64,000 nucleotides of DNA from an uncultured Thermoleophilia bacterium (GTDB lineage: Bacteria > Actinomycetota > Thermoleophilia > UBA2241), in contig CAVQSP010000015.1 of assembly GCA_963715985.1 (NCBI GenBank), forward strand, positions 1-64,000, given 5' to 3'. The notes beneath the pieces were generated by a model. That model saw nothing but the letters and a program-made list of their open reading frames with translations. It was not told the origin of the DNA and made no database searches. The translations under genes were made by a program, and so were the position numbers. Positions 49,101 to 58,539 of the stretch are shown one piece after another; the stretch's first letter is position 1, and the number at the start of each line of letters is the position of its first letter.

Positions 49101-49554
49101 CGTCGTCACCGTCCCTGAGCATCATCGCGATGCGGCCGCTCATGCAGCCGGTGAGCGCGATGAGGCCCTCGCTGTGCTCCGCCAGCAGCTCCCAGTCGGC
49201 ACGCGGCTTGTAGTAGTAGCCCTCGAGGTAGGCGCGGGTGCTGAGCTTGACGAGATTGCGGTAGCCGGTCTGGTCGCGGGCAAGCAGTGTGAGGTGCGCA
49301 TTGCGCTCCTTGACGCCGGCCCGCGAGTGGCGGTCGGTGGCGACGTACAGCTCGAGGCCGATGATGGCTTTGATGCCCTCGTCCTCGGCGGCGCGGTAGA
49401 ACTTCACGGCGCCGCCGAGCGTGCCGTGGTCGGTGAGGGCCACAGCGGGCATGCCGAGTTCCTTGGCTCTGCGCACAAGATCCTTGACTCGGCAGGCGCC
49501 GTCCAGCAGCGAGTACTCGCTGTGTACGTGGAGATGGACGAAATCGGCGGCCAT
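46141..49554 (-). CDS. dnaE: DNA polymerase III alpha subunit
   Basis: FVHLHVHSEYSLLDG (PHP), [34 protein letters not shown]-terminal OB fold. Confidence 0.98.
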   Translation of the reverse strand: MAADFVHLHVHSEYSLLDGACRVKDLVRRAKELGMPAVALTDHGTLGGAVKFYRAAEDEGIKAIIGLELYVATDRHSRAGVKERNAHLTLLARDQTGYRNLVKLSTRAYLEGYYYKPRADWELLAEHSEGLIALTGCMSGRIAMMLRDGDDAGALAELRRLADLLGPENVFVELQDAGLPEQRELLPRLWQLAQTAGLRTVATNDVHYLRHEDSYAHDALLCIQTQSNLEDENRMRYGSDEFYLKSGAEMYERFKDYPGACEATVEIASRCDVSLDFGTYLLPSYPVPDGITEGSYLRQLCEKGLLRRYGTDMAPEVRERLDFELGVIGDMGFDAYFLIVWDYVKFAKDNGIAVGPGRGSAAGSIVSYALGITDIDPLKYDLLFERFLNPGRKSMPDIDMDFSVERREEVIDYVAEKYGRDHVAQIITFGTMAARAAVRDAARVMGKPYAVGDKIAKMIPEQAPPATFSQAMLPGGELKQAYDADEEVKEVVDLAMSLEGLIRNDSIHAAAVVISDKPLTEYLPLQQKGDAELVTQFDMNDVAKLGLLKMDFLGLRNLDVIEAALDIIEHTRGVCIEIDQLPLDDEKTYQMLARGDSTGVFQFESPGMREAMRDVRPTQFEDLIAIVALYRPGPMQYIPTYARNKKDPASVVYDHEALRPILEPTHGVTIYQEQYMAIARRVGGFTPAQADDLRKAISKKDRKLMATLKEPLMQGLAASGVPPAVSHKLWANFEATGDYSFNKSHAACYAMISYRTAWLKANYPVEYMAALVSSVMNTKDKVPFYVNQCHEMGIEVLPPDVNESVVGFTVVEGKIRFGMNAVKGVGVGAIEAIIAAREEGGRFTSIYDFCARVDSAQANKRVLEALIRAGAFDSSGDPRRGMLEALPTAMADGERRRKDKAQGQGGLFDLVAAEESGAQAPQVPQREFDQATLLRGEKEALGLYVSAHPLQDLREQLREEIEVSASSLDDAVDGSAVWTGGIVANAQKKVSRNGGVWLAFRLEDVDGGVECRAWPATYDQYRDLLVEDSIVKVRGRVERKSESETTLIAIEVVPFSGVSEYRPLTVTIDADRLRPSVLDELKGVLADFPGSVPVVLEMVRGQDCAKLRVGDALRVDPVAGLYAELKALLGESCVGAG

Positions 49555-49565
49555 GGAGGTCTCCG

Positions 49566-49574
49566 ATTCTAGCA
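49566..49574 (-). promoter_or_regulatory. Extended -10 promoter (TGcTAGAAT) of dnaE-his
   Basis: Minus strand TGC-TAGAAT, 11 nt before the ATG. Confidence 0.5.
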
Positions 49575-49620
49575 CGGCGCATGAGGCCGCCGGCGGTACT
49601 GCTGCCGCGCAACCGCGCCC

Positions 49621-51526
49621 TCAGCCGGTCCGGACCAGCCTCGCCGCGCCGCGCTTGATGCCGCCCCAAACGAAGGGCGCGTAGAGCGCGATGCGCTCCC
49701 CGAGACCGTTGGGGCAGAGCACGCCGAGCATCTCCGCGAAGAACCGTTCACCGTAGCTTCGCGGCAGACCGATGCGCCCGTAGATCTCGTCGACCAGGGC
49801 CTCCATCTCCCCCTCTTCGTAGCCCGTTGGATTGTGGAACCCGACGTAGGTGGCCAGGTCCTCCTCGGGATCCGCCCTCAGCTCGATGCCGTAGGCCTCA
49901 GGATGATGGTACGACGTCCGAGAAGAGGTCGAGGTAGAAGCGGCAGAGCGCGACCTCGCCGCGGATCTTGGCCAGGTTGGCTCTGATGAAGGCCACGGTC
50001 TTGTCGATATCGGCCTCCGTCTCCCCGGGGATGCCGGCCATGAGGAACACATTCACGATGATGCCCGCGGCGTGGAAGTTGTCGATGACCTTGACCACGT
50101 CGCGCAGATCGATCCCCTTGTGCGCGCGGTCCAGGACCTCCTGCGAACCGGACTCCAGCCCGAAGTGCAGGGCGAAGAAGCCGGCCTTGCGGACCTTGTG
50201 GCAGAACTCGATGTCCGTGAACGCCTTCTCCGCACGGACGAAGGAGTAGAACCTGGCCCCGCTGCCGGCCTCGAGGAGGGCGTCGGCCAGCGTCTCCAGC
50301 TGCCGTATCGAGAGATTGGTGTCGCAGATGTGGAAGTAGGAGGGATGATGGCGTTGCGTCAGCTTCTCGACGTCGCGCATGAAGGCGTCCGCCGGCCGCA
50401 CGCAGTACTGGCTCTCGTCCGAGAGGATCTTCGGGAAGTGGCAGAAGCGGCAGCGAGCCCAGTCGCAGCCGGAGGACGTGCTCAGTGTGAGGATCGGATT
50501 GGGCCGCGGGTCGGTGAAGACGGGCGTCGCGGCCTGGGCGATGGTGAAGTCCCTCTCGGGGTTACGGCGCATCGATCCGTCAGCCGTCCGCCAGACGAGG
50601 CTCGGCACGTCGCCGAGGCTGGGCGAGGCAGTCGTCAGCTCGTCGTGAAGCTTTGCGACGGCTTCCTCCCCGGCGCCGGTCACCATGCTGTCGTAGAGTG
50701 GTGACACGGCGCTGTCTCCCGCCAGCGTCTCACGCAACGTGCTGACGGTCGCGCCGCCCAGCGTGATGTGCAGATCCGGCCGCTGCTCGCGTATGACTCG
50801 CGCGAGGGTGAACGCGGGGATGATCTGCGCTTCGTGTGTGACGGAGATGCCGGCAAGCGCCGCGCCGGCCGGGATCGACGGCACGATCCTCCTCCTGTAG
50901 TAGTCGAGAAACGGGTTGACCGTGGCGTCCCCGCTGGCGGCGAGGACCGCCCTGGACCGCTTCGTGCCGCACTCCATCTCGAGCCCGCCGAGAACGCCGA
51001 ACTTGCTCGGCCAGAACGACGCGAAGCACAGGTCCACTGCGACCTGCAGCCGCGCCAGCGCGAGCAGGAACCTGTTCTTCGAGAGCCCCATGAAGCGCTC
51101 GCGCAGGAGGGCCTCGGATCCGTGCAGCAGGCGCACGACGGCTTCGCGCCGCCCGAGAAGCCCGGCCAGCGCCCGGGCCGGCTCATCAGAGCGGAACCCG
51201 AGCTCCTCCGGGATCCGGGCCAGAGCGATCGAGTCGGCCAGGTAGGCGACCTGATCCGGGACGAGCTCGCCCCGCCTCCCGGCGAGCTCGTCCATGGCCC
51301 GCTCCAGCGTCCCGATGCCCGCAAGGTGCTGGTAGAGCTCGTTGTCCAACACCCGCTGCAGGACCGGGTAGCCATGCTCGAGCAGGTACCCGGTCAGCTG
51401 CGGGACCGCCAGCGTGTTGAAGACGTAGAAATGCTCCGGGGAGAACAGGACGATCTCCCCCACTGCCTTCCTCTGCGTGCCCGGTCGCAGGGCAGGCGAC
51501 TCGGCAAGCGTGTCGAGAGGAGTCAT
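49621..51526 (-). CDS. B12-binding-domain radical SAM protein (one indel near 49912)
   Basis: GISV...Q...TLAR.IR...PDLHITLGG cobalamin-domain pattern, CDWARCRFC cluster motif, FGLESGSQEVL, GIPGET; C-terminus continues in the 49621..50052 frame (YHHPEAYGIE...). Confidence 0.85.
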
Positions 51527-51599
51527 CTGGACACTACCCCTTTCGTTGAGCGGAGGCCGGGGCATCAGCCGGAGCCGAACGCGCTCGCCCTGACGAATC

Positions 51600-51627
51600 A
51601 TCGTAGCCAAGATAGTGGCGCGGTCAA
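51600..51627 (-). promoter_or_regulatory. Sigma70-type promoter of the radical SAM gene
   Basis: TTGACC-N16-TACGAT on the minus strand. Confidence 0.55.
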
Positions 51628-51838
51628 AGGCCCGAGCTGACAGCGCTCGACTCGTCGCACGAGCTCGCCGACACGGCAGGCGCCGCCCGGCCGCGAGTAC
51701 TCGCACCGCACGTGCAGACGGACGATATCGGCGGCCGTGGAGGTCTTCGATTCAAGCACAGTGCGTGCCATCACCCACCGCTGGCAGGCGACGCCTTAGC
51801 GCAGCCTGCGGCACGGCTCCCGCGCGTCTCTGGACTGC

Positions 51839-53281
51839 TCAGTGACCCGTCAGCCCGAGCTTCAGGTCGTTGACGTTCGTGCCGGTCGGGCCGGTGTACA
51901 CACGGTCGCCGGCGGCCTCGAGCGCCGTGCCGGAGGCGTGGGCGGCGATGGCGGCCGAAGGGTCCACCTCGGCGCCCGCAAGGGCGGCGGCGCTGAGGTC
52001 GTCGACCAGGCCGCCTGCGGCGTGACCGGGGCCGTCGATGCCGTCGGAGTCGAGGCACAGGACGCACGCCGGAGAGGAGCCGGGCGGTCTGTGCCCGAGC
52101 GCCTCGGCGCCCGCGAGGGCGCCGTCCTGGCTCGGGCCACCGCCGCCGGAGAGGCCCGTGCCCGACCGCAGCGCGGTGGTGGCCTCTCCCCCGGCGACAA
52201 GCGCTGTACCTGGTCCGGCTTCGGCGAGCCGCTCCGCGAACCAACGCCCGGCCTCGGCGCTCTCGCCCTCCAGGTCGAGGCGCAGTAGCGTGGCCGCGTA
52301 GCCACGGTCCTCCGCCGCCCGTACCGCCGCCTCGCACATCATCCGTGCGTCGGCGACCACGAAGGAGGTGACGCCGGCGAGGCTGTGGCAGCTCTCCTCG
52401 GCCGGGTCGGCGTGCCGCAGGTGAGCGGCCACGCGCGTCGGCAGGTGGCCCCACAGGTCCCAGCGGTCGCAGACGGCCTGGGCGTCCGCAAAGGTCGAAG
52501 TATCCGGCACCGTGAGGTCGGTGACGGCGTCGAGCGGGTCGCCGACCACGTCGGACACCGTCAGGTTGAGCACCTCGCAGCCGGCGGTCCGCGCCAGACG
52601 CCCGCCCTTCAAGCGCGAGAGATGCTTGCGCACCTGGTTCACGGCGACGATGTCGGCGCCGCAGGCCAGCAGCAGGCGATTGGCGGCGATCTTGTCGGAG
52701 AGCGTCAGGCCTTCGGCGGGCGCCACGACCAAGGCCGAGCTGCCGCCGGTGACGAGGGCGATGAGGAGGTCGTGGGGGGCGGCCGCCGCGGCGATCTCCA
52801 GGAGCCGCTGGCCGCCGGCCAGGCTGCTCACGTCGGGCACCGGGTGGGAGGCTTCGAGGACCTCGATGTGCGTCAGCTGCACGCCCTGCCCGCGCTTGAC
52901 CACCACCGCGCCTGCCGCGATGCGGTCGCCGAGCAGCTCGTCGAGGACGCCGGCCATGCCGATCGTGGCCTTGCCGGCGCCCACGACGAACACGCGACGT
53001 CCGCGAAGGTCGAACCGACGTGCTTCGTCACCCGGCGGGGTGACAACGAGGTCGTCACCTTCGAGGTGCACCATCCGCCGCAGGTTGGCCGCCGGGTCCA
53101 CGGCCGCAAGCGCGGTCGTGGCCACGGCGAGCGCGTCCGCGCGCAGCTCCGCGCGCCCGTGGCTGGTCAGCTGCGCATAGTTGACGAAGCGGGTTCGTGC
53201 CGCGGCCGCGCCGAGCGTCGGCTCCGCATCACCGGGCACGGCCCGGCCGGGGCCCGGGGCGTCTGCCGGGCCGCCGCTCAC
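51839..53281 (-). CDS. Class II glycerate kinase-like protein (DUF4147 + MOFRL), divergent
   Basis: GAGKA, HPVPD, GGSSAL, VRKHLSRLKGGRLA, SDVVGD, GGE, DGIDG, TGPTGTNVND; GTGA overlap with the enolase-like stop. Confidence 0.9.
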   Translation of the reverse strand: MSGGPADAPGPGRAVPGDAEPTLGAAAARTRFVNYAQLTSHGRAELRADALAVATTALAAVDPAANLRRMVHLEGDDLVVTPPGDEARRFDLRGRRVFVVGAGKATIGMAGVLDELLGDRIAAGAVVVKRGQGVQLTHIEVLEASHPVPDVSSLAGGQRLLEIAAAAAPHDLLIALVTGGSSALVVAPAEGLTLSDKIAANRLLLACGADIVAVNQVRKHLSRLKGGRLARTAGCEVLNLTVSDVVGDPLDAVTDLTVPDTSTFADAQAVCDRWDLWGHLPTRVAAHLRHADPAEESCHSLAGVTSFVVADARMMCEAAVRAAEDRGYAATLLRLDLEGESAEAGRWFAERLAEAGPGTALVAGGEATTALRSGTGLSGGGGPSQDGALAGAEALGHRPPGSSPACVLCLDSDGIDGPGHAAGGLVDDLSAAALAGAEVDPSAAIAAHASGTALEAAGDRVYTGPTGTNVNDLKLGLTGH

Positions 53282-54568
53282 CGCGCCAACGCCGTCGGCC
53301 GGCGCCAGTCGCGCCCCGCGTACACCGCCTCGAACCCGAGCCACTCCTCGATCTGGAAGAGCCGGTTGTACTTGGCGGTGCGCTCGCCGCGCACCGGCGA
53401 GCCCGTCTTGATCTGACCCGCGTTCAGCGCCACGACGAGGTCGGCGATGATGGGGTCCTCGGTCTCGCCGGAGCGCTCGCTCACGCACACGCCGTAGCCA
53501 TTGCGGAACGCCGTCTCGGCGGCCGTGAACGCCTCCGTGAGCGTCCCGATCTGGTTGACCTTCCAGAGGATCGCGTTGGCGGCGCCGAGCTCCACACCGC
53601 GCCGCACCAAGTCCGGGTTCGTCACGAAGAGATCGTCGCCGATGAGCTGCACCCCGGCCGCGCCAAGACGCCGCGTGATCTCCACCCAGCCGTCCCAATC
53701 GTCCTCGGCCAGCGGGTCCTCGATGGAGACGATGCCGAAGTCGCGGACGAGCTCCTCATAGAACGCGATCAGCTCGTCCGTGGTGTAGTCAGTCCCGGCA
53801 ACGGTGTACACCCGCCGCTCCGCATCCCACAGATGAGTCGCGGCGCAGTCCAGTGCGTACACCATGTCGTTCGCATACCCAGCGGCCGCGACGCCCTCGT
53901 GCAGCACCTCCAGAGCCTCGCGAACGTCCACGATGGGCGTGGCGAAGCCGCCCTCGTCGCCGGTGTTGGCGGCGAGCTTGCCGTAGCGGGCGACGACGAT
54001 CTCCATGAGCGCCATGTGGCACTCGCTGGCCATCCGCATCGCCTCGCTGAAGGTGGCGGCGCCCACCGGCATGCAGATGAACTCCTGGAAGTCGAGGTCG
54101 TTGGAGGTGAGCTTGCCGCCGTTGATGAGATTGACGAACGGCACCGGCAGCACGCGCGCGTCGGCGCGCAGGTAGCGGAACAGCGGGAGGCCCGCGGCCG
54201 CGGCGGCCGCGCGGGCCGCGGCCAGCGACACGCCCAGCAGCGCGTTGGCGCCCAGACGGCTCTTGTCGGGCGTGCCGTCCAGTTCGCACAGAAAGCGGTC
54301 CAGACCCACCTGGTCGGCGGCGTCGCAGCCCAGCATGGCCGGACCGATGACGTCGGCCACGTTGGCGATGGCCTTGGCGACGCCCTTGCCGCGGTACGCG
54401 GCCTCCCCGTCGCGCAGCTCGACGGCCTCGGCGCTGCCGGTAGAGCGGCCGGCGGGCACGTCGGCCCTGCCCAGGTGCCCGCCGGCGATCACGTCCACCT
54501 GCACGGTCGGGTAGCCGCGGCAGTCGAGGATCATGCGGGCGCGGACGTCGGTGATCGGTGGTGCTCAT
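53278..54568 (-). CDS. Enolase-family protein, divergent paralog (one indel after codon 4)
   Basis: RG.PTV, STG..EA.ELRD, LGANA, QEF, GDEGGF, SIEDP, GDDLFVTN, KVNQIGT, RSGETED, QIKTG, ERTAKYN; several canonical residues replaced (see findings). Confidence 0.9.
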
Positions 54569-54612
54569 GCCTCTCGCCTTTCGTCGTGCGGGCTTGACTC
54601 GGCTCGAGGTGA

Positions 54613-54642
54613 AGTCTAGAAGGTCGGGTGGGCAGGCGCCAA
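54613..54642 (-). promoter_or_regulatory. Candidate promoter of the enolase-like/kinase pair
   Basis: TTGGCG-N18-TAGACT on the minus strand upstream of the ATG at 54568. Confidence 0.4.
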
Positions 54643-54689
54643 GGTGGTACGGCGGCCGCCGCAGCCACGCCGGCCCGGCTGTCCACCCC

Positions 54690-55255
54690 TCACATCACGA
54701 CGAGCACGCCGGCGTCGAGCCCTGCTCTGCCGGTTCCCGGCGAGGTCGACCGCGTCGACGCTTCCAGGTCGTAGCGGCCACGGGGCAGCGTACAGGTAAC
54801 GGGTAACGCACCTCCGCGTTGGTGCGCTGTAGCGGGACGTTGAGCTTCATCTCGAGCCTCGCCCCCCGGAGGATCCTCACGGACCCCCACCACTTCGGGG
54901 AGATCGCGTCGTCCGCCCTCAGGCGGAGAGCTCACCCGCCCGCCGCTCGCGACACGCGCGTCGGCCGGCGCCCGGGTCACGGGGCGGGTTTCGTCGTTGC
55001 GCACCGTGGGCTTCTTTGCCGCCTCGGCGTAGCCGTCGAGGTCAGTGGACCGGAAGTCGTACGCGCTGCTGCCGGACGAGCCCACGCGGAAGGGCGCGGG
55101 GTAGACGGTCCAGTCGGCCGCACCGGCCGCCCGGAACTCAGTCGTGGCCACGCCGGAGAACAGGTCCCTCGCGCCGAGCGTGACCGTCACCTCCGTCCTG
55201 TTCCACCCGTAGACGTTGGCCGCCGGCTCAGACGGCCGCGCAGGACCGATGCCAT
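54690..55255 (-). pseudogene. Frameshifted remnant of a secreted protein's Ig-like/beta-sandwich C-terminal domains
   Basis: GWNRTEVTVTLGARDLFSGVATTEFR..DWTVY..PFRV..YDFRSTD, then CTLPRGRY and VDAVDLAGNRQS in other frames; no start or signal peptide. Confidence 0.55.
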
Positions 55256-55329
55256 AGTGGATCCCCTCCCCAGAAGGCGGGGAGGCCCGCGGTGGCTGCC
55301 TTCGCCGGCCGCGGCGCTCCCCACCTCGG

Positions 55330-55590
55330 GAGCGTAGTCCCGTGGCGCCGCAGACACAACGACGGCCGCAGGGCGCGCTCGGCCTCCCGTGCCCTGCCGC
55401 GCAGGCTGCACCCCCAGCCCACGATCTCGCGGCCGTGGCAACCGATGATCGCCACCAGATGACCCCAGCCGTCCTCCTCGCAGCAGACGTGCCCGAGAGC
55501 CATGGCCCAGTGCTCGTTGCTGCGAGCGGAGACGGACCGCCGTCCCTGGGCCGACGGACGCGGCGTAGCGCCAGCTTCGGGCCCGGCACT
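55330..55590 (-). mobile_element. IS3-family transposase (integrase core) remnant
   Basis: RSNEHWAMALGHVCCEEDGWGHLVAIIGCHGREIVGW..SLRGRAREAERAL resembles the IS3 pattern N.RW..D.T....GW.YL..VID...REIVG with both Asp positions lost; no terminal inverted repeats found. Confidence 0.7.
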
Positions 55591-55726
55591 CTGATGCCCC
55601 TCGGCTCCCCTGCAGGGGGACGGGACCGGCCTCAGGGGGAGAGGGCGCGTCGTCACACCGGGCGGCGGTGCCGGCTGGTGCGGTGCGCCGCCGCACGAGC
55701 GGTGGGACGAAGTGGACGAGCCCGTA

Positions 55727-56382
55727 CTACTGCAGCTTCCTCGGCGCCGCGATGGTCTTGTCGAACACCTCATGGGCCCGCGCGGCATACGCATCGCCAG
55801 TTTCGAGGTACCCCGCCGACGCCTCCAGTGCCGGCGGGTCATGGCTCAGCGACCTCGTACGACCAGAACACATCGTGCAGAGCCATCTGTTGGAGGAGCC
55901 AGAACGCTTCGTCGGCCCAATGGTTGAAGCGAAACGAGGAGCTCCCTGTAGCGCCGGCGATCGCTCGCGGAGGCGAAGTACCGCGACGCTTTGGCGCTCA
56001 GTATATGCAGATACTTCTCGGTAGCCGTGAACCAAGACTCGGGCTGGCCCTCGAAATCGGTCCAGACCCGACGCGCGTAGTCCTCCCCTGCCAGCAAGTC
56101 TTCCCTCTTGTCGGGGTCGCCGATCATGGGTGCCAGGGTCGCGGCGAGGCTGGACGACTGGAGCTCGAATTCGTCGTACGTGTGGGCGTAACGGCCGAAC
56201 GTCTCCTGCATCCCGGTCAGCATTTGCTTGTACTCGGCCCGATACTTCGCTCTGACGTGAGCGGTGGCCGCGCCCGGCGCACACAGCAGCAAGCAGAAGG
56301 CCAGCAGCACCAGGATGGTGGACAGACGCCACCGGGGGGTCCTCAAGCGTCCGGCCGAACCACGTGCCGTTTCCATGCTCAT
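55727..56382 (-). CDS. Hypothetical secreted, mostly helical protein (frameshifted near 55930-55850)
   Basis: Signal peptide RWRLSTILVLLAFCLLLCAPGAATA|HV; GGAGG RBS; C-terminus in the 55727 frame; good upstream promoter. Confidence 0.55.
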
Positions 56383-56418
56383 GAGGCCTCCCCGCCGACG
56401 CTCTTCTCTTGCACTTGC

Positions 56419-56447
56419 AGTGTCCCCCTCGTGCCGAGGCCTGTCAA
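56419..56447 (-). promoter_or_regulatory. Sigma70-type promoter
   Basis: TTGACA-N17-GACACT upstream of the secreted-protein gene. Confidence 0.6.
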
Positions 56448-56456
56448 CGAGCCGCA

Positions 56457-56516
56457 TTGCCTCACGAAGAACGTACTCGAACACGATTCGTTGCCTCAGA
56501 TCAGAAGGCACTCGAA
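56457..56516. repeat. Imperfect tandem repeat with a 34-35 bp period
   Basis: ttgcctca-cgaagaacgtactcgaa versus ttgcctcagatcagaaggcactcgaa. Confidence 0.5.
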
Positions 56517-56601
56517 GGGCGCCGAACTCCAAGCTCGGCATGCGAGCAAGAACGAGGTCGGATGCGGTGGCCCTGGAGCGACTCGACCCCCCAATGACGC
56601 C

Positions 56602-56619
56602 GTCCGTTGACCAACGGAC
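56602..56619. promoter_or_regulatory. Operator-like inverted repeat
   Basis: GTCCGTTG-ac-CAACGGAC, immediately before the ATG at 56622. Confidence 0.45.
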
Positions 56620-56769
56620 CCATGAGGAAGCTCGCCGCGCTGCTCGCCCCCGTCTACGCCTTCGCGCCGGGCGTGTTCGTCGAGGAGGGCGAGGTCGGCA
56701 TCTACCTCTACGAGCTCGATGTCCACGCGGTCGGGGGCACGCTGGACGAGCCCCAGGCGTGCCCGCCGG

Positions 56770-56868
56770 TCAGGAAGCGGGCGCCCAGTAACAGCGCTCG
56801 GGCGACTCGATGCGGCCGTCCTTCTTCCGGTCGGGCATGACCTCGAGCACCTTGTCCGCGTCGCTCAT
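56770..56868 (-). pseudogene. Internally deleted small winged-helix-type protein
   Basis: MSDADKVLEVM..KKDGRIESPERCYWAP behind a GGAGGG RBS; both ends resemble ~60-aa proteins ending K.G.I.SPKRCYW, but the middle helix-turn-helix is missing. Confidence 0.45.
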
Positions 56869-56964
56869 CTCGTCCCTCCCTGTGGTCCGCGCGCGACCGC
56901 CGTCGCGGCAGGCGTCACGTCTCGTCGTCGCCGGCCGGCATCGCCGGCCCGCCGCCGGCCTCAC

Positions 56965-58539
56965 TCACTTCTGCTGGCTGCGCACCATCCCGTACTCGAT
57001 GGAGTCGACGAGCGCCTCCCAGCTGGCCTCGATGATGTTCTCGCTCACGCCGATGCTGCCCCACACGTCCTCGCCGTCGCTGGCGTCGAGGAGAACGCGA
57101 GTCACGGCACCTGTGCCCTTGGTCTCATCGAGGATGCGCACCTTGTAGTTGACCAGCTCGATGTCGCTGAGGTGCGGGTACTTCTGCGTGATCGCCTGGC
57201 GCAGCGCGCTGTCCAGGGCGTTCACCGGGCCGTTGCCCTCGGCCGTGCTGATGACGCGCTCGCCGCCCACGTGCACCTTGATGGTGGCCTCCACCACGGC
57301 CTTGCCGTCCTCGCGCTTCTCGACGATGACGCGGAAGCTCTCCAGGCGGAACAGTGGCTCGTGCGGCGAGAGCTCGTCGCGCAGCAGCAGGTCGAAGCTC
57401 GCGTCGGCGGCCTCGTAGTGGTAGCCGCGGTGCTCCTGGTCCTTGAGGTGCTTGAGCACGGCCGCCACCTTCTCGTCCTCGCCCTCCACGCTCAGGCCGA
57501 GGTCGCGGGCGCGACGCAACACCGTGGCCTTGCCCGAGAGCTCCGAGACGAGGATGCGCTGCTCGTTGCCCACGGCGGCCGGGTCCACGTGCTCGAAGGT
57601 CTGGGGCGCGTGCTCCACGGCCGCCACGTGCATGCCGCCTTTGTGCGCGAAGGCGGCCTTGCCCACGTACGGCTGGTGTGTGGCGATCGAGATGTTGCAG
57701 ATATCCGATACGAAGTGTGCGGTCTCCGCGAGCCTGCTCAGCTGCTCGTCGCTGACCACGTCCAGGCCCATCTTGAGCTTGAGGGCCGGGATGATGCTCA
57801 CCAGGTTGGCGTTGCCGCAGCGCTCACCGTAGCCGTTCATGGTGCCCTGCACCTGCAGGGCGCCGCGGTCCACGCCCACGAGACTGTTGGCCACGGCGCA
57901 GTCGCTGTCGTTGTGGACGTGCACGCCCACCGGCACCGGGACTGCCGCCACTACCTCACCGACGACGTCGGCGAGGAACGGCGGCAGCGAGGCCCCGTTG
58001 GTGTCGCACAGGCAGACGGTGCCGGCTCCCGCCTCGGCAGCCGTGAGCGCGCACTTGAGCGCGTAGGCCGCGTCGTCGCGCCAGGCGTCGAAGAAGTGCT
58101 CGGCGTCGTACACCACCTGCTTGCCCTGCGCCACGAGGAACGCCACCGAGTCGGCGATCATGCGCAGGTTCTCCTCGCGGCTCACGCGCAGGACCTTGGT
58201 GAGGTGCAGCCCCCACGTCTTGCCGACGATGGTGACGGTGTCCGTTGACGCCGCGGCGAGCACACGCAGGCCCTCGTCGGCAGCGGCGGTCACACCCTTG
58301 CGGCGCGTCATGCCGAAGGCCACCAGACGCGCCGTCACCAGCTTCTCCCGCTCCATGCGGCGGAAGAACTCGATCTCCTTGGGGTTGGACGAGGGGAAGC
58401 CGCCCTCGATGAGGTGGATGCCCAGCTCGTCGAGCTTGAGGGCGATGCGGACCTTCTCGTCCACCGAGACGGACATGCCCTCTTGCTGCATGCCGTCGCG
58501 GAGCGTGGTGTCGTAGAGCTGCACGTGCTGCCCGTTCAT
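56965..58539 (-). CDS. cimA: Citramalate synthase
   Basis: YDTTLRDG.Q.EG, VGKTW.LH, YDAEHFFD, LCDTNG, NGYGERCGNANL, FAHKGGMH, SELSGK. Confidence 0.93.
   Translation of the reverse strand: MNGQHVQLYDTTLRDGMQQEGMSVSVDEKVRIALKLDELGIHLIEGGFPSSNPKEIEFFRRMEREKLVTARLVAFGMTRRKGVTAAADEGLRVLAAASTDTVTIVGKTWGLHLTKVLRVSREENLRMIADSVAFLVAQGKQVVYDAEHFFDAWRDDAAYALKCALTAAEAGAGTVCLCDTNGASLPPFLADVVGEVVAAVPVPVGVHVHNDSDCAVANSLVGVDRGALQVQGTMNGYGERCGNANLVSIIPALKLKMGLDVVSDEQLSRLAETAHFVSDICNISIATHQPYVGKAAFAHKGGMHVAAVEHAPQTFEHVDPAAVGNEQRILVSELSGKATVLRRARDLGLSVEGEDEKVAAVLKHLKDQEHRGYHYEAADASFDLLLRDELSPHEPLFRLESFRVIVEKREDGKAVVEATIKVHVGGERVISTAEGNGPVNALDSALRQAITQKYPHLSDIELVNYKVRILDETKGTGAVTRVLLDASDGEDVWGSIGVSENIIEASWEALVDSIEYGMVRSQQK

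Follow-up and report, generated by a model that had tools for sequence, protein, structure and literature searches.

A variant enolase and its partner MOFRL kinase that probably convert a glycerate-like acid, possibly isoserine, into phosphoenolpyruvate

Introduction

What reaction is served by an enolase-like protein whose gene overlaps that of a glycerate-kinase-like protein, in a genome that also encodes a normal enolase? The question arises from two genes in a 64,000-nucleotide stretch of DNA (the window), corresponding to positions 1 to 64,000 of contig CAVQSP010000015.1 in assembly GCA_963715985.1 of an uncultured Thermoleophilia bacterium. One gene encodes a variant enolase (53278..54568, minus strand), and the other encodes a MOFRL/DUF4147 kinase resembling glycerate 2-kinases (51839..53281, minus strand). 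The pair probably turns a glycerate-like acid, possibly isoserine, into phosphoenolpyruvate (PEP) by an undescribed route.

Enolase proper is treated as a single-function enzyme, and annotation names every member phosphopyruvate hydratase, including the database relatives of the variant enolase. If the variant branch has its own function, metabolic maps lack one of the catabolic routes that lead into PEP. Such a route would be relevant to the soil and wetland Actinomycetota and Chloroflexota that appear among the names of the database matches, and to fermenters using ureido or guanidino compounds. In a literature search, exclusive of supplements, neither this enolase branch nor any isoserine kinase or phospho-isoserine lyase was found to be described.

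The gene pair and its family membership

The conserved start of the variant enolase gene is ATG 54568, and an intact open reading frame (ORF) extends from ATG 54534 to TGA 53278, encoding 418 amino acids (aa) within a stop-to-stop frame of 53278-54564. The kinase gene starts at GTG 53281 (an alternative GTG lies at 53239) and encodes a 480-residue protein composed of DUF4147 and MOFRL domains. As reported in a preliminary description of this DNA, the two co-directional genes overlap by GTGA, the enolase stop codon TGA (53280-53278) overlapping the GTG at 53281. The G+C content of the window is approximately 70%; that at third codon positions (GC3) is 0.94 in the variant enolase gene, and the values at codon positions 1, 2, and 3 of the kinase gene are 0.79, 0.56, and 0.90, respectively, which supports the assignment of both as genes. 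In the window, as in its two nearest relatives, dnaE and a cimA/leuA-like gene lie on either side of the pair, which has no further partner genes there. Its characterization as accessory and apart from glycolytic genes also held, the ordinary enolase gene being located on another contig (C11) and the pair being carried by 8 of the 49 sampled genomes of the genus. A predicted complex of the two proteins obtained scores of 0.00 and 0.00 in a run that included no controls and thus speaks neither for nor against an interaction. Of the sequencing runs listed as sharing the sampled words, the DNA runs stem from wetland and soil metagenomes and contain no more than 0.48 of these words; no RNA run was listed.

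The variant enolase matches Enolase_N (PF03952, 1.1e-46) and Enolase_C (PF00113, 1.7e-104) and passes TIGR01060 (520.7 bits; cut-off, 300). Among solved structures, the enolase of Methanocaldococcus jannaschii (2pa6, 470 bits) comes closest, the other listed enolases scoring approximately 370–420 bits. The kinase matches DUF4147 (PF13660, 1.3e-66) and MOFRL (PF05161, 1.2e-21) and aligns over its full length with PH0495 of Pyrococcus (1x3l, 248.7 bits) and TM1585 of Thermotoga (2b8n, 188.7 bits), but it scores far below the cut-offs of the glycerate 2-kinase equivalogs NF041176 (159.5 bits versus 550) and NF040791 (100.4 versus 670). The MOFRL motif D-x(0,2)-G-x(0,1)-D-[GP]-x(4)-[APS]-[ACDGST], as given in the available text of its description (PMC2063504), can be read on the translation as DGIDGPGHAAG. 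Their folds place the two proteins in the enolase and MOFRL families, and each misses at least one feature that defines the characterized enzymes.

Substitutions in the variant enolase and the kinase

The residues of the variant enolase are numbered here as in yeast enolase. Its signature motifs are LDCRG, VPAGRSTG, NGGKLTSN, WKVNQIGT, and SERSGET. Compared with solved enolases, VPSGASTG is changed to VPAGRSTG, NGGKHAGN to NGGKLTSN, SHRSGET to SERSGET, and L/I-K-x-NQIGT to WKVNQIGT (Ile/Leu344 to Trp). The changes that had been noted earlier from the sequence (GGKLT, SERSG, and GRST) are thus real when aligned to solved structures, and the core motifs are kept. The retained residues include the Mg ligands Ser39, Asp246, Glu295, and Asp320; the catalytic Lys345, Glu211, and Glu168; Lys396; and the phosphate-binding Arg374 and Ser375. 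In a cross-phylum alignment of 38 sequences, whose contigs range in G+C content from 0.41 to 0.73, these catalytic and ligand residues correspond to invariant columns (S31, D229, E272, D300, K325, E194, E151, K376, R354, and S355).

The replacement of His373 by Glu (SERSGET) was found in all of the best 120 database matches, which share 62–97% identity with the window protein, and is invariant in the 38-sequence alignment. It is therefore not private to this assembly, which the preliminary description had left as a point to be checked. SHRSGET and G-A-S were found in 79/79 ordinary enolase loci from a single-protein scan of the genome collection, in which ordinary enolases dominate the 80 loci and only one locus (L005) contains a true member of the variant family. 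At position 38, the best 120 matches contain Arg (104) or Lys (3), with 13 not read by the pattern, and at position 159 they contain Leu (68) or His (16), with 36 not read. Within the family, residue 38 may be Arg, Leu, or Ser and residue 159 may be His or Leu, and neither choice follows the gene context. As a shared signature, the set of changes proposed earlier therefore stands for His373Glu, which is family-wide, but not for Ala38Arg and His159Leu. The family-defining change is the replacement of His373 by Glu.

In the complex of Synechococcus enolase with PEP, as presented in the available part of the structural report (PMC8996150), His373 and Glu168 hold a water molecule 3.5 Å from C3, Arg and Ser bind the phosphate, and Ala38, which is Arg in the window protein, belongs to a loop whose backbone binds the second metal. 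By analogy with this structure, the family-defining Glu is placed at the C3 leaving-group site.

In the kinase, DAVTDLTVPD is found where solved glycerate kinases have EAIASGPTVKD, VTDLT being one residue shorter than its ASGPT counterpart. The change from IASGPT to VTDLT reported earlier was thereby confirmed against solved structures, and it extends to the partner kinases: TD[LP]T occupies the ASGPT position in seven aligned kinases encoded next to variant enolases, with the consensus ITDPT. Judged from these alignments, TD[LP]T in place of ASGPT is a family-wide change of the enolase-coupled kinase subfamily. A second motif near the C-terminal domain reads GGGGPSQD, compared with GGKGGPNQE or GIGGRNQE in solved enzymes. 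The sequence of the reported change from GGRNQE to GGPSQD is correct, but the motif is only partly changed because the proline of GGPxQ is already present in Pyrococcus 1x3l (GGPNQE).

These residues bear on a conservative alternative, to which we assign an appreciable chance, well below an even one: the kinase may be a D-glycerate 2-kinase and the variant enolase a specialized isozyme acting on 2-phosphoglycerate (2-PG), the two being co-expressed to carry or safeguard additional flux from glycerate to PEP. The isozyme could, for example, be insensitive to a pathway inhibitor such as tartronate-semialdehyde phosphate, and the module would then be the lower branch common to non-phosphorylative Entner–Doudoroff, serine-cycle, glyoxylate, and tartrate routes. 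Both proteins pass their family domain models, the enolase passes TIGR01060, and the residues for 2-PG dehydration are invariant save His373 (and His159 in this copy). On the other side, the His that is common to all ordinary enolase loci is Glu in every member of the variant family, and yeast enolase mutants lacking His373 or His159 reportedly lose most of their activity.

Pairing and distribution

A total of 24 distinct genome loci (the window, three further loci, and 20 extended loci, with L005 lying on the same contig as L121) were compared. The kinase gene lies beside the variant enolase gene in all 22 assessable loci, directly adjacent in 19 and separated only by a GntR gene in 3; in the two other loci, the contig ends at the enolase gene. 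In metagenome contigs scanned for DNA encoding xSERSGETED, 80 loci were obtained (G+C content of the contigs, 0.33 to 0.75), of which 5 contain no enolase (chance or partial matches) and 8 were not assessable. The kinase gene was found on the same strand in 64 of the remaining 67, directly downstream in 54, downstream at a distance of 335–1706 bp in 6, and upstream in 4; three loci lack it. Because these metagenome loci were picked by the Glu motif, they cannot be used for testing the invariance of this Glu. The co-occurrence that had been suggested for examination is thus borne out in both samples, and the two genes are a co-inherited unit across phyla with near-obligate pairing.

Of 400 other genomes sampled evenly from the phylum, 3 carry the variant enolase (E ≤ 1e-140), and 26 of 400 other genomes of the class do so. 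The carriers in the class are confined to the genus (8/49), the family (17/79), and a second family (9/44), with none in the remaining families (0/277). Among those searched of 401 genomes from the phylum of a Micavibrio genome, the DNA pattern for SERSGETED was not found. At least two Enolase_C matches are present in all 26 carrier genomes, i.e. a normal enolase is encoded besides the variant, which speaks against the glycerate alternative in that a second enolase is not needed for 2-PG. The genome of the window follows the same rule: the canonical gene that the preliminary description had proposed to look for is present on contig C11, its product scoring 448.8 bits (versus 350.9 for the variant enolase) and being 52% identical to the variant enolase, which is accordingly not the only enolase of this genome. 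Among the genomes examined, the variant enolase is accessory and always a second copy. Genomes assigned to this genus vary in size between 1.7 and 4.5 Mb, and the pair is restricted to a subset of them. The assembly of the window comprises 4.35 Mb with 7.3% contamination, and part of it may stem from a second organism.

Gene contexts of the pair

Pfam families were counted in 133 proteins encoded within three genes of the pair at 57 metagenome loci. FCD (11), GntR (10), LarA racemase (10), D-2-hydroxyacid dehydrogenase (8), class-III aminotransferase (5), and DctQ (4) were followed by carbamoyltransferase, carbamate kinase, M20 hydrolase, and short-chain dehydrogenase/reductase (3 each). The LarA homologs best match malate racemase models (331.7 bits versus a cut-off of 500), and the dehydrogenases are GhrA- or hydroxypyruvate-reductase-like, scoring below the cut-off. 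Several features of these contexts fit glycerate as the substrate: the most frequent partners are D-2-hydroxyacid dehydrogenases, LarA racemases, tripartite ATP-independent periplasmic (TRAP) carriers, and GntR/FCD or IclR regulators; three-gene operons encoding a dehydrogenase, the variant enolase, and the kinase are most naturally interpreted as a route from hydroxypyruvate via D-glycerate and 2-PG to PEP; and the many differing upstream contexts suggest a hub metabolite. According to the available text of PMC2063504, class II glycerate kinases make 2-PG and cluster with pyruvate kinase, which fits the glycerate alternative, but the same text places no enolase in these clusters, which does not.

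A different set of partners, which we count in favour of the private route proposed below, is found in the class to which the window belongs. In its second family, a constant cluster comprises a divergent HemL-like transaminase (NF005453, 636.7 bits, over the cut-off), a GntR regulator, the variant enolase, the kinase, a PotA/PotD/PhnS-like ATP-binding cassette (ABC) importer, and a CrtI/amine-oxidase-like flavoprotein, often with a second class-III aminotransferase. In the family of the window itself, four loci (L119, L121, L123, and L126) encode, in this order, GntR, an aminotransferase, MauE/DoxX, the same flavoprotein, an Orn/DAP-type decarboxylase, the variant enolase, and the kinase. A phosphonate-related reading was dropped: the scores for PhnS2-like and PhnR-like proteins are far below the cut-offs, and no PEP mutase was seen.

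A third type of context delivers amines. The near-identical loci L184 and L179 encode, with short intergenic gaps, an IclR regulator, a Liv-type ABC importer, an NPN isomerase (group 22, 406 bits), a DDAH/arginine-deiminase-like enzyme, a carbamoyltransferase, a carbamate kinase (399.9 bits), the variant enolase, and the kinase; the scores of the isomerase and the carbamate kinase are both above the cut-offs. The DDAH/arginine-deiminase-like enzyme of the two loci is 281 aa long. Locus L169, from another organism (G+C content, 0.44), encodes a carbamoyltransferase, the variant enolase, a carbamate kinase, the MOFRL kinase, a PreA-like dihydropyrimidine dehydrogenase (317.8 bits versus a cut-off of 335), and a dihydropyrimidinase (443.9 versus 393), alongside a divergent M20 hydrolase, a pyruvate kinase (777.6 bits), and a CdaR/PucR-type regulator. 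In a third organism (L149), a carbamate kinase gene adjoins the pair. The carbamoyltransferases (L169:6644-7687, L179:3029-4072, and L184:5105-6148) represent an uncharacterized subfamily; they keep the carbamoyl-phosphate motifs, with S[TL]RTR, HPxQ, and HCLP, without the ornithine SMG loop, and they score 282 against a cut-off of 288 for acetylornithine carbamoyltransferase and 201 against 453 for YgeW. These three operons look like a deiminase-type, ATP-yielding route for a guanidino or ureido acid. A carbamoyltransferase releases a primary amine, and no aminotransferase, deaminase, or pyridoxal phosphate (PLP)-dependent lyase is present in the operons of L184, L179, and L169. Since no other nitrogen-removing enzyme is encoded there, only the NPN isomerase, the kinase, and the variant enolase are left to remove the nitrogen. 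For the glycerate alternative, these operons present a difficulty in that they lack a step removing the amino group before the glycerate stage.

A proposed phosphorylation–elimination route

Phosphorylation followed by elimination is the simplest scheme that accounts for the strict pairing, for the operons that deliver amines, and for the occurrence of a normal enolase in all carriers. The reading that we favour, with confidence only just short of even, is that the pair forms a private module with an intermediate other than 2-PG and converts a 3-substituted lactate into PEP; isoserine is the foremost candidate for this substrate. The pair would constitute a self-contained, horizontally spread catabolic end-module. 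The kinase would phosphorylate the 2-hydroxyl group of a small 3-substituted 2-hydroxy acid, and the variant enolase would then apply enolase chemistry on two Mg2+ ions, with Lys345 taking the C2 proton and the group at C3 being lost by β-elimination; the product would be PEP. The phosphorylated intermediate would be private to the pair and distinct from the D-2-phosphoglycerate pool of the housekeeping enolase, and the two genes may stay welded together for this reason.

With isoserine (3-amino-2-hydroxypropanoate), the sequence would be isoserine plus ATP to 2-phospho-isoserine, followed by conversion to PEP and NH4+, the Glu that replaces His373 pairing with the departing ammonium group. 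Isoserine itself as the substrate is a tentative proposal, on balance doubtful. Equally tentative is the corresponding enzyme assignment, in which the variant enolase would be the first member of enolase proper with a substrate other than 2-PG, i.e. a 2-phospho-isoserine ammonia-lyase forming PEP, and the kinase would be an isoserine 2-kinase. Isoserine could arise by a reductive pyrimidine-type route leading from a 5-hydroxypyrimidine via N-carbamoyl-isoserine; in the parallel case, thymine yields 3-aminoisobutyrate. If this holds, the pair closes an undescribed, energy-conserving breakdown of 5-hydroxypyrimidines, guanidino or ureido hydroxy acids, and hydroxylated amines, in which the carbamoyl group yields ATP via carbamate kinase and the C3 skeleton via pyruvate kinase.

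Several observations weigh against this proposal. The commonest enzyme partners in the metagenome census, LarA racemases (10/133) and D-2-hydroxyacid dehydrogenases (8/133), suggest conversion of hydroxypyruvate or L-glycerate to D-glycerate more simply than a supply of isoserine, and the very diverse upstream contexts suggest glycerate or another hub metabolite. A hydroxyl leaving group requires Glu211 as the general acid, and this residue is invariant. Ala38Arg and His159Leu are inconstant: it is precisely in the carbamoyltransferase operons L179 and L184 that position 38 is Leu, and many members keep His159. The carbamoyltransferase context is found in 4 of the 75 variant enolase loci, representing at least three organisms (L179 and L184 being near-identical). 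Pyruvate kinase beside a class II glycerate kinase is known from true glycerate pathways, as the available text of PMC2063504 describes. The natural source of isoserine or 5-hydroxypyrimidines is itself hypothetical here. The two earlier suggestions along these lines find partial support: that of a shared non-glycerate substrate gains from the family-wide changes in both proteins, but the LarA and dehydrogenase partners fit glycerate at least as well; and isoserine, which was among the options named, gains from the carbamoyltransferase and carbamate kinase contexts, but plain glycerate fits the commonest partners equally well or better.

Part of the contexts could also be accommodated by a C4 dicarboxylic 2-hydroxy acid, such as tartrate or 3-hydroxyaspartate, although we regard this as quite improbable. 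Its 2-phospho ester would lose water or ammonia to give phosphoenol-oxaloacetate, which would yield PEP and CO2, and Arg at position 38 would bind the extra carboxylate. TRAP carriers of the DctPQM type in at least four loci are in keeping with such a substrate, as is the best match of the LarA homologs to malate racemase models, albeit below the cut-off. The Orn/DAP-type decarboxylase gene that adjoins the variant enolase gene in clusters of the f1 type could likewise be accounted for, but its product could instead make isoserine from 3-hydroxyaspartate. Position 38 is, however, Leu or Ser in some members; a third carboxylate near Glu168, Glu211, and Glu373 would be electrostatically awkward; and no tartrate-specific gene was found among the neighbours in the census.

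3-Sulfolactate, which the preliminary description had offered beside isoserine, fared worst and is a most improbable substrate. It would be phosphorylated and desulfonated to PEP and sulfite, in reverse of the ComA and ComB steps of coenzyme M synthesis. The chemistry would formally reverse a known Mg-dependent addition to PEP, and a chiral 2-hydroxy acid would explain the racemase and dehydrogenase partners. Against it, no sulfite exporter, sulfite dehydrogenase, or sulfonate-pathway family is present among the 25 commonest neighbour families, the Glu at the leaving-group site would be expected to repel a sulfonate, and the amine and ureide contexts would be left unexplained.

Comparison with known systems

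The variant enolase shares with canonical enolase (EC 4.2.1.11; PF03952 and PF00113; TIGR01060) the two-domain architecture, the metal ligands, Lys345, Glu211, Glu168, and all of the carboxylate- and phosphate-binding residues. Unlike the canonical enzyme, the family always has Glu373, is never the sole enolase, and is tied to a dedicated kinase. A large cross-phylum branch with an altered leaving-group residue and an obligate private kinase implies that thousands of genes may be mis-annotated.

Class II (MOFRL) glycerate 2-kinases, e.g. the glycerate kinase of Thermoproteus tenax, PH0495 of Pyrococcus (1x3l), TM1585 of Thermotoga (2b8n), and TtuD of Agrobacterium, serve the lower non-phosphorylative Entner–Doudoroff, serine-cycle, and tartrate routes. 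The window kinase resembles them in its DUF4147 and MOFRL domains and its MOFRL motif, and the logic of the module (a kinase followed by an enolase step to PEP) is similar. It differs in that its subfamily has TD[LP]T for ASGPT and scores under the equivalog cut-offs. The known glycerate-kinase clusters contain pyruvate kinase but no private enolase, as far as the available text of PMC2063504 covers them.

The layout of the carbamoyltransferase operons resembles arginine- or agmatine-deiminase routes and the end of the 2,8-dioxopurine (reductive uric acid) pathway, which consists of the YgeW carbamoyltransferase, the YqeA carbamate kinase, the YgeY M20 hydrolase, and the YgeX diaminopropionate ammonia-lyase. 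According to the accessible portions of two reports (bioRxiv 10.1101/2025.04.24.650524; PMC12507026), YgeW together with YqeA cleaves a 3-ureido-propanoate and makes ATP. Both in that pathway and in L169, L179, and L184, a carbamoyltransferase and a carbamate kinase (with an M20 hydrolase in L169) would act before a C3 acid is deaminated to the pyruvate level. In contrast to the purine pathway, the last step here would be carried out by a kinase and an enolase-type enzyme instead of a PLP lyase; no carbamoyltransferase, carbamate kinase, or M20 hydrolase gene of this kind is present in the window.

Two further enzymes of related chemistry can be compared. The ComA phosphosulfolactate synthase and ComB likewise interconvert PEP and a 2-phospho-3-substituted lactate in a Mg-dependent manner; in contrast, the fold of the variant enolase is unrelated, the direction would be opposite, and no sulfur genes were found among the commonest neighbours. 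PbfA, the (R)-1-hydroxy-2-aminoethylphosphonate ammonia-lyase, reportedly removes ammonia from a β-amino-α-hydroxy acid analogue, which corresponds to isoserine among the phosphonates. Unlike the present pair, this PLP enzyme has the class-III aminotransferase fold and acts without a phosphorylation step. The aminotransferase encoded beside the variant enolase in L005 scores 194 bits against the PbfA cut-off of 525.

Start, leader, and integrity of the variant enolase gene

ATG 54568 is the start codon in four close relatives, whose proteins begin MSTTITDV, but it is out of frame in the window. Alignment with these relatives showed that one extra G at 54556, directly after ATGAGCACCACC, breaks the frame at codon 5. 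The in-frame ATG 54534 corresponds to codon 12 of the relatives, and a protein started there would be short by only 11 residues. The start at 54568 proposed earlier is therefore a real ATG, preceded by a purine-rich stretch and used by the relatives, but the extra G that places it out of frame had been overlooked. Downstream of the break, the ORF is intact, and its product is 97% identical to the nearest database protein. Contigs of four sequencing runs gave no indel call over 54516-54612, where they are too sparse to weigh on this base. The assembly (22 contigs, 88.8% complete, 7.3% contamination) contains further split genes, among them a MOFRL kinase gene (C17), a transaminase gene (C7), and a decarboxylase gene (C13). 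Because other genes are split likewise, the extra G may be an assembly error, and an assembly indel is as likely as a real mutation.

If the frameshift were real, the variant enolase gene of this genome could be a decaying pseudogene and the pair no longer functional here, a situation that we consider improbable. Besides the extra G relative to the four close relatives, it would agree with the observations that the pair here lacks the transporter, regulator, and upstream enzymes of other members, whether through loss or from the outset, and that the second kinase copy on C17 is frame-broken too. The intact ORF past the break, the GC3 of 0.94, and the high identity to the nearest database protein argue against decay; translation could still start at ATG 54534; and the similar splitting of several unrelated genes in the assembly points to indel errors.

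A purine-rich, Shine–Dalgarno-like stretch, GAAAGGCGAGAGG (54570..54582, minus strand), is located just 5' of ATG 54568, and its GAAAGGC core is kept in the relatives. Approximately 45 nt upstream of the ATG lies a TAGACT box of the TANNNT type (54613..54618, minus strand), a candidate −10 element for the pair. The box is present in four of the five aligned sequences (the window, L115, L116, and L125, and not L117); in these four, window positions 54613-54620 and the corresponding sites read TCTAGACT / TTTAGACT, with the leader otherwise diverged. The conserved TAGACT box could be a −10 element or a regulator site. A scan for consensus sigma-70 promoters detected no site upstream of the variant enolase gene and did not list the box, and a single promoter-like site was found at 51627-51600, downstream of the kinase stop codon. 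The shared promoter suggested earlier is thus not recovered as a consensus site, but the TAGACT box is retained as its candidate −10 element. The promoter scan, which also covered terminators, gave no terminator-like site. An Rfam scan of 54450-57050 gave no match, and no known riboswitch therefore precedes the pair.

Related genes elsewhere in the assembly and flanking regions

A second kinase of the enolase-coupled type is encoded on contig C17 (7222-8531, plus strand) in two frames, with the motifs FTNPTV and GGPSQE; it is 62% and 54% identical to the window kinase, and no enolase gene is nearby. Genes related to those of the clusters were also found on C7 (2516-3325; a HemL-like transaminase matched over only approximately half of its length) and on C13 (303302-304550; an Orn/DAP-type decarboxylase split between two reading frames). 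These scattered or split relatives represent either a decayed module or the effect of many assembly indels.

A gene for a B12-binding radical-SAM protein (49898-51706, minus strand; region 49580-51670) sits between dnaE and the kinase gene. It gave only weak subfamily matches, the best being to the PhpK family (93.6 bits versus a cut-off of 600). A 122-nt direct repeat (49462-49583 and 51646-51767, 79% identical), which copies the 5' end region of dnaE, brackets this gene, and the whole looks like an insertion with a duplicated target. Neither the two closest relatives nor any other locus has this insertion, and the gene was therefore rejected as a part of the enolase–kinase unit.

On the other side of the pair, the 2.4-kb region between the variant enolase gene and the cimA/leuA-like gene (54588-56960) has no counterpart in the relatives, the corresponding stretch of L116 being only approximately 170 bp long. 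The weak codon signal of the region moves from frame to frame, and no Pfam, Rfam, or intragenomic match was obtained. An ORF on the minus strand of this region (55846-56541) contains a hydrophobic stretch resembling a signal peptide.

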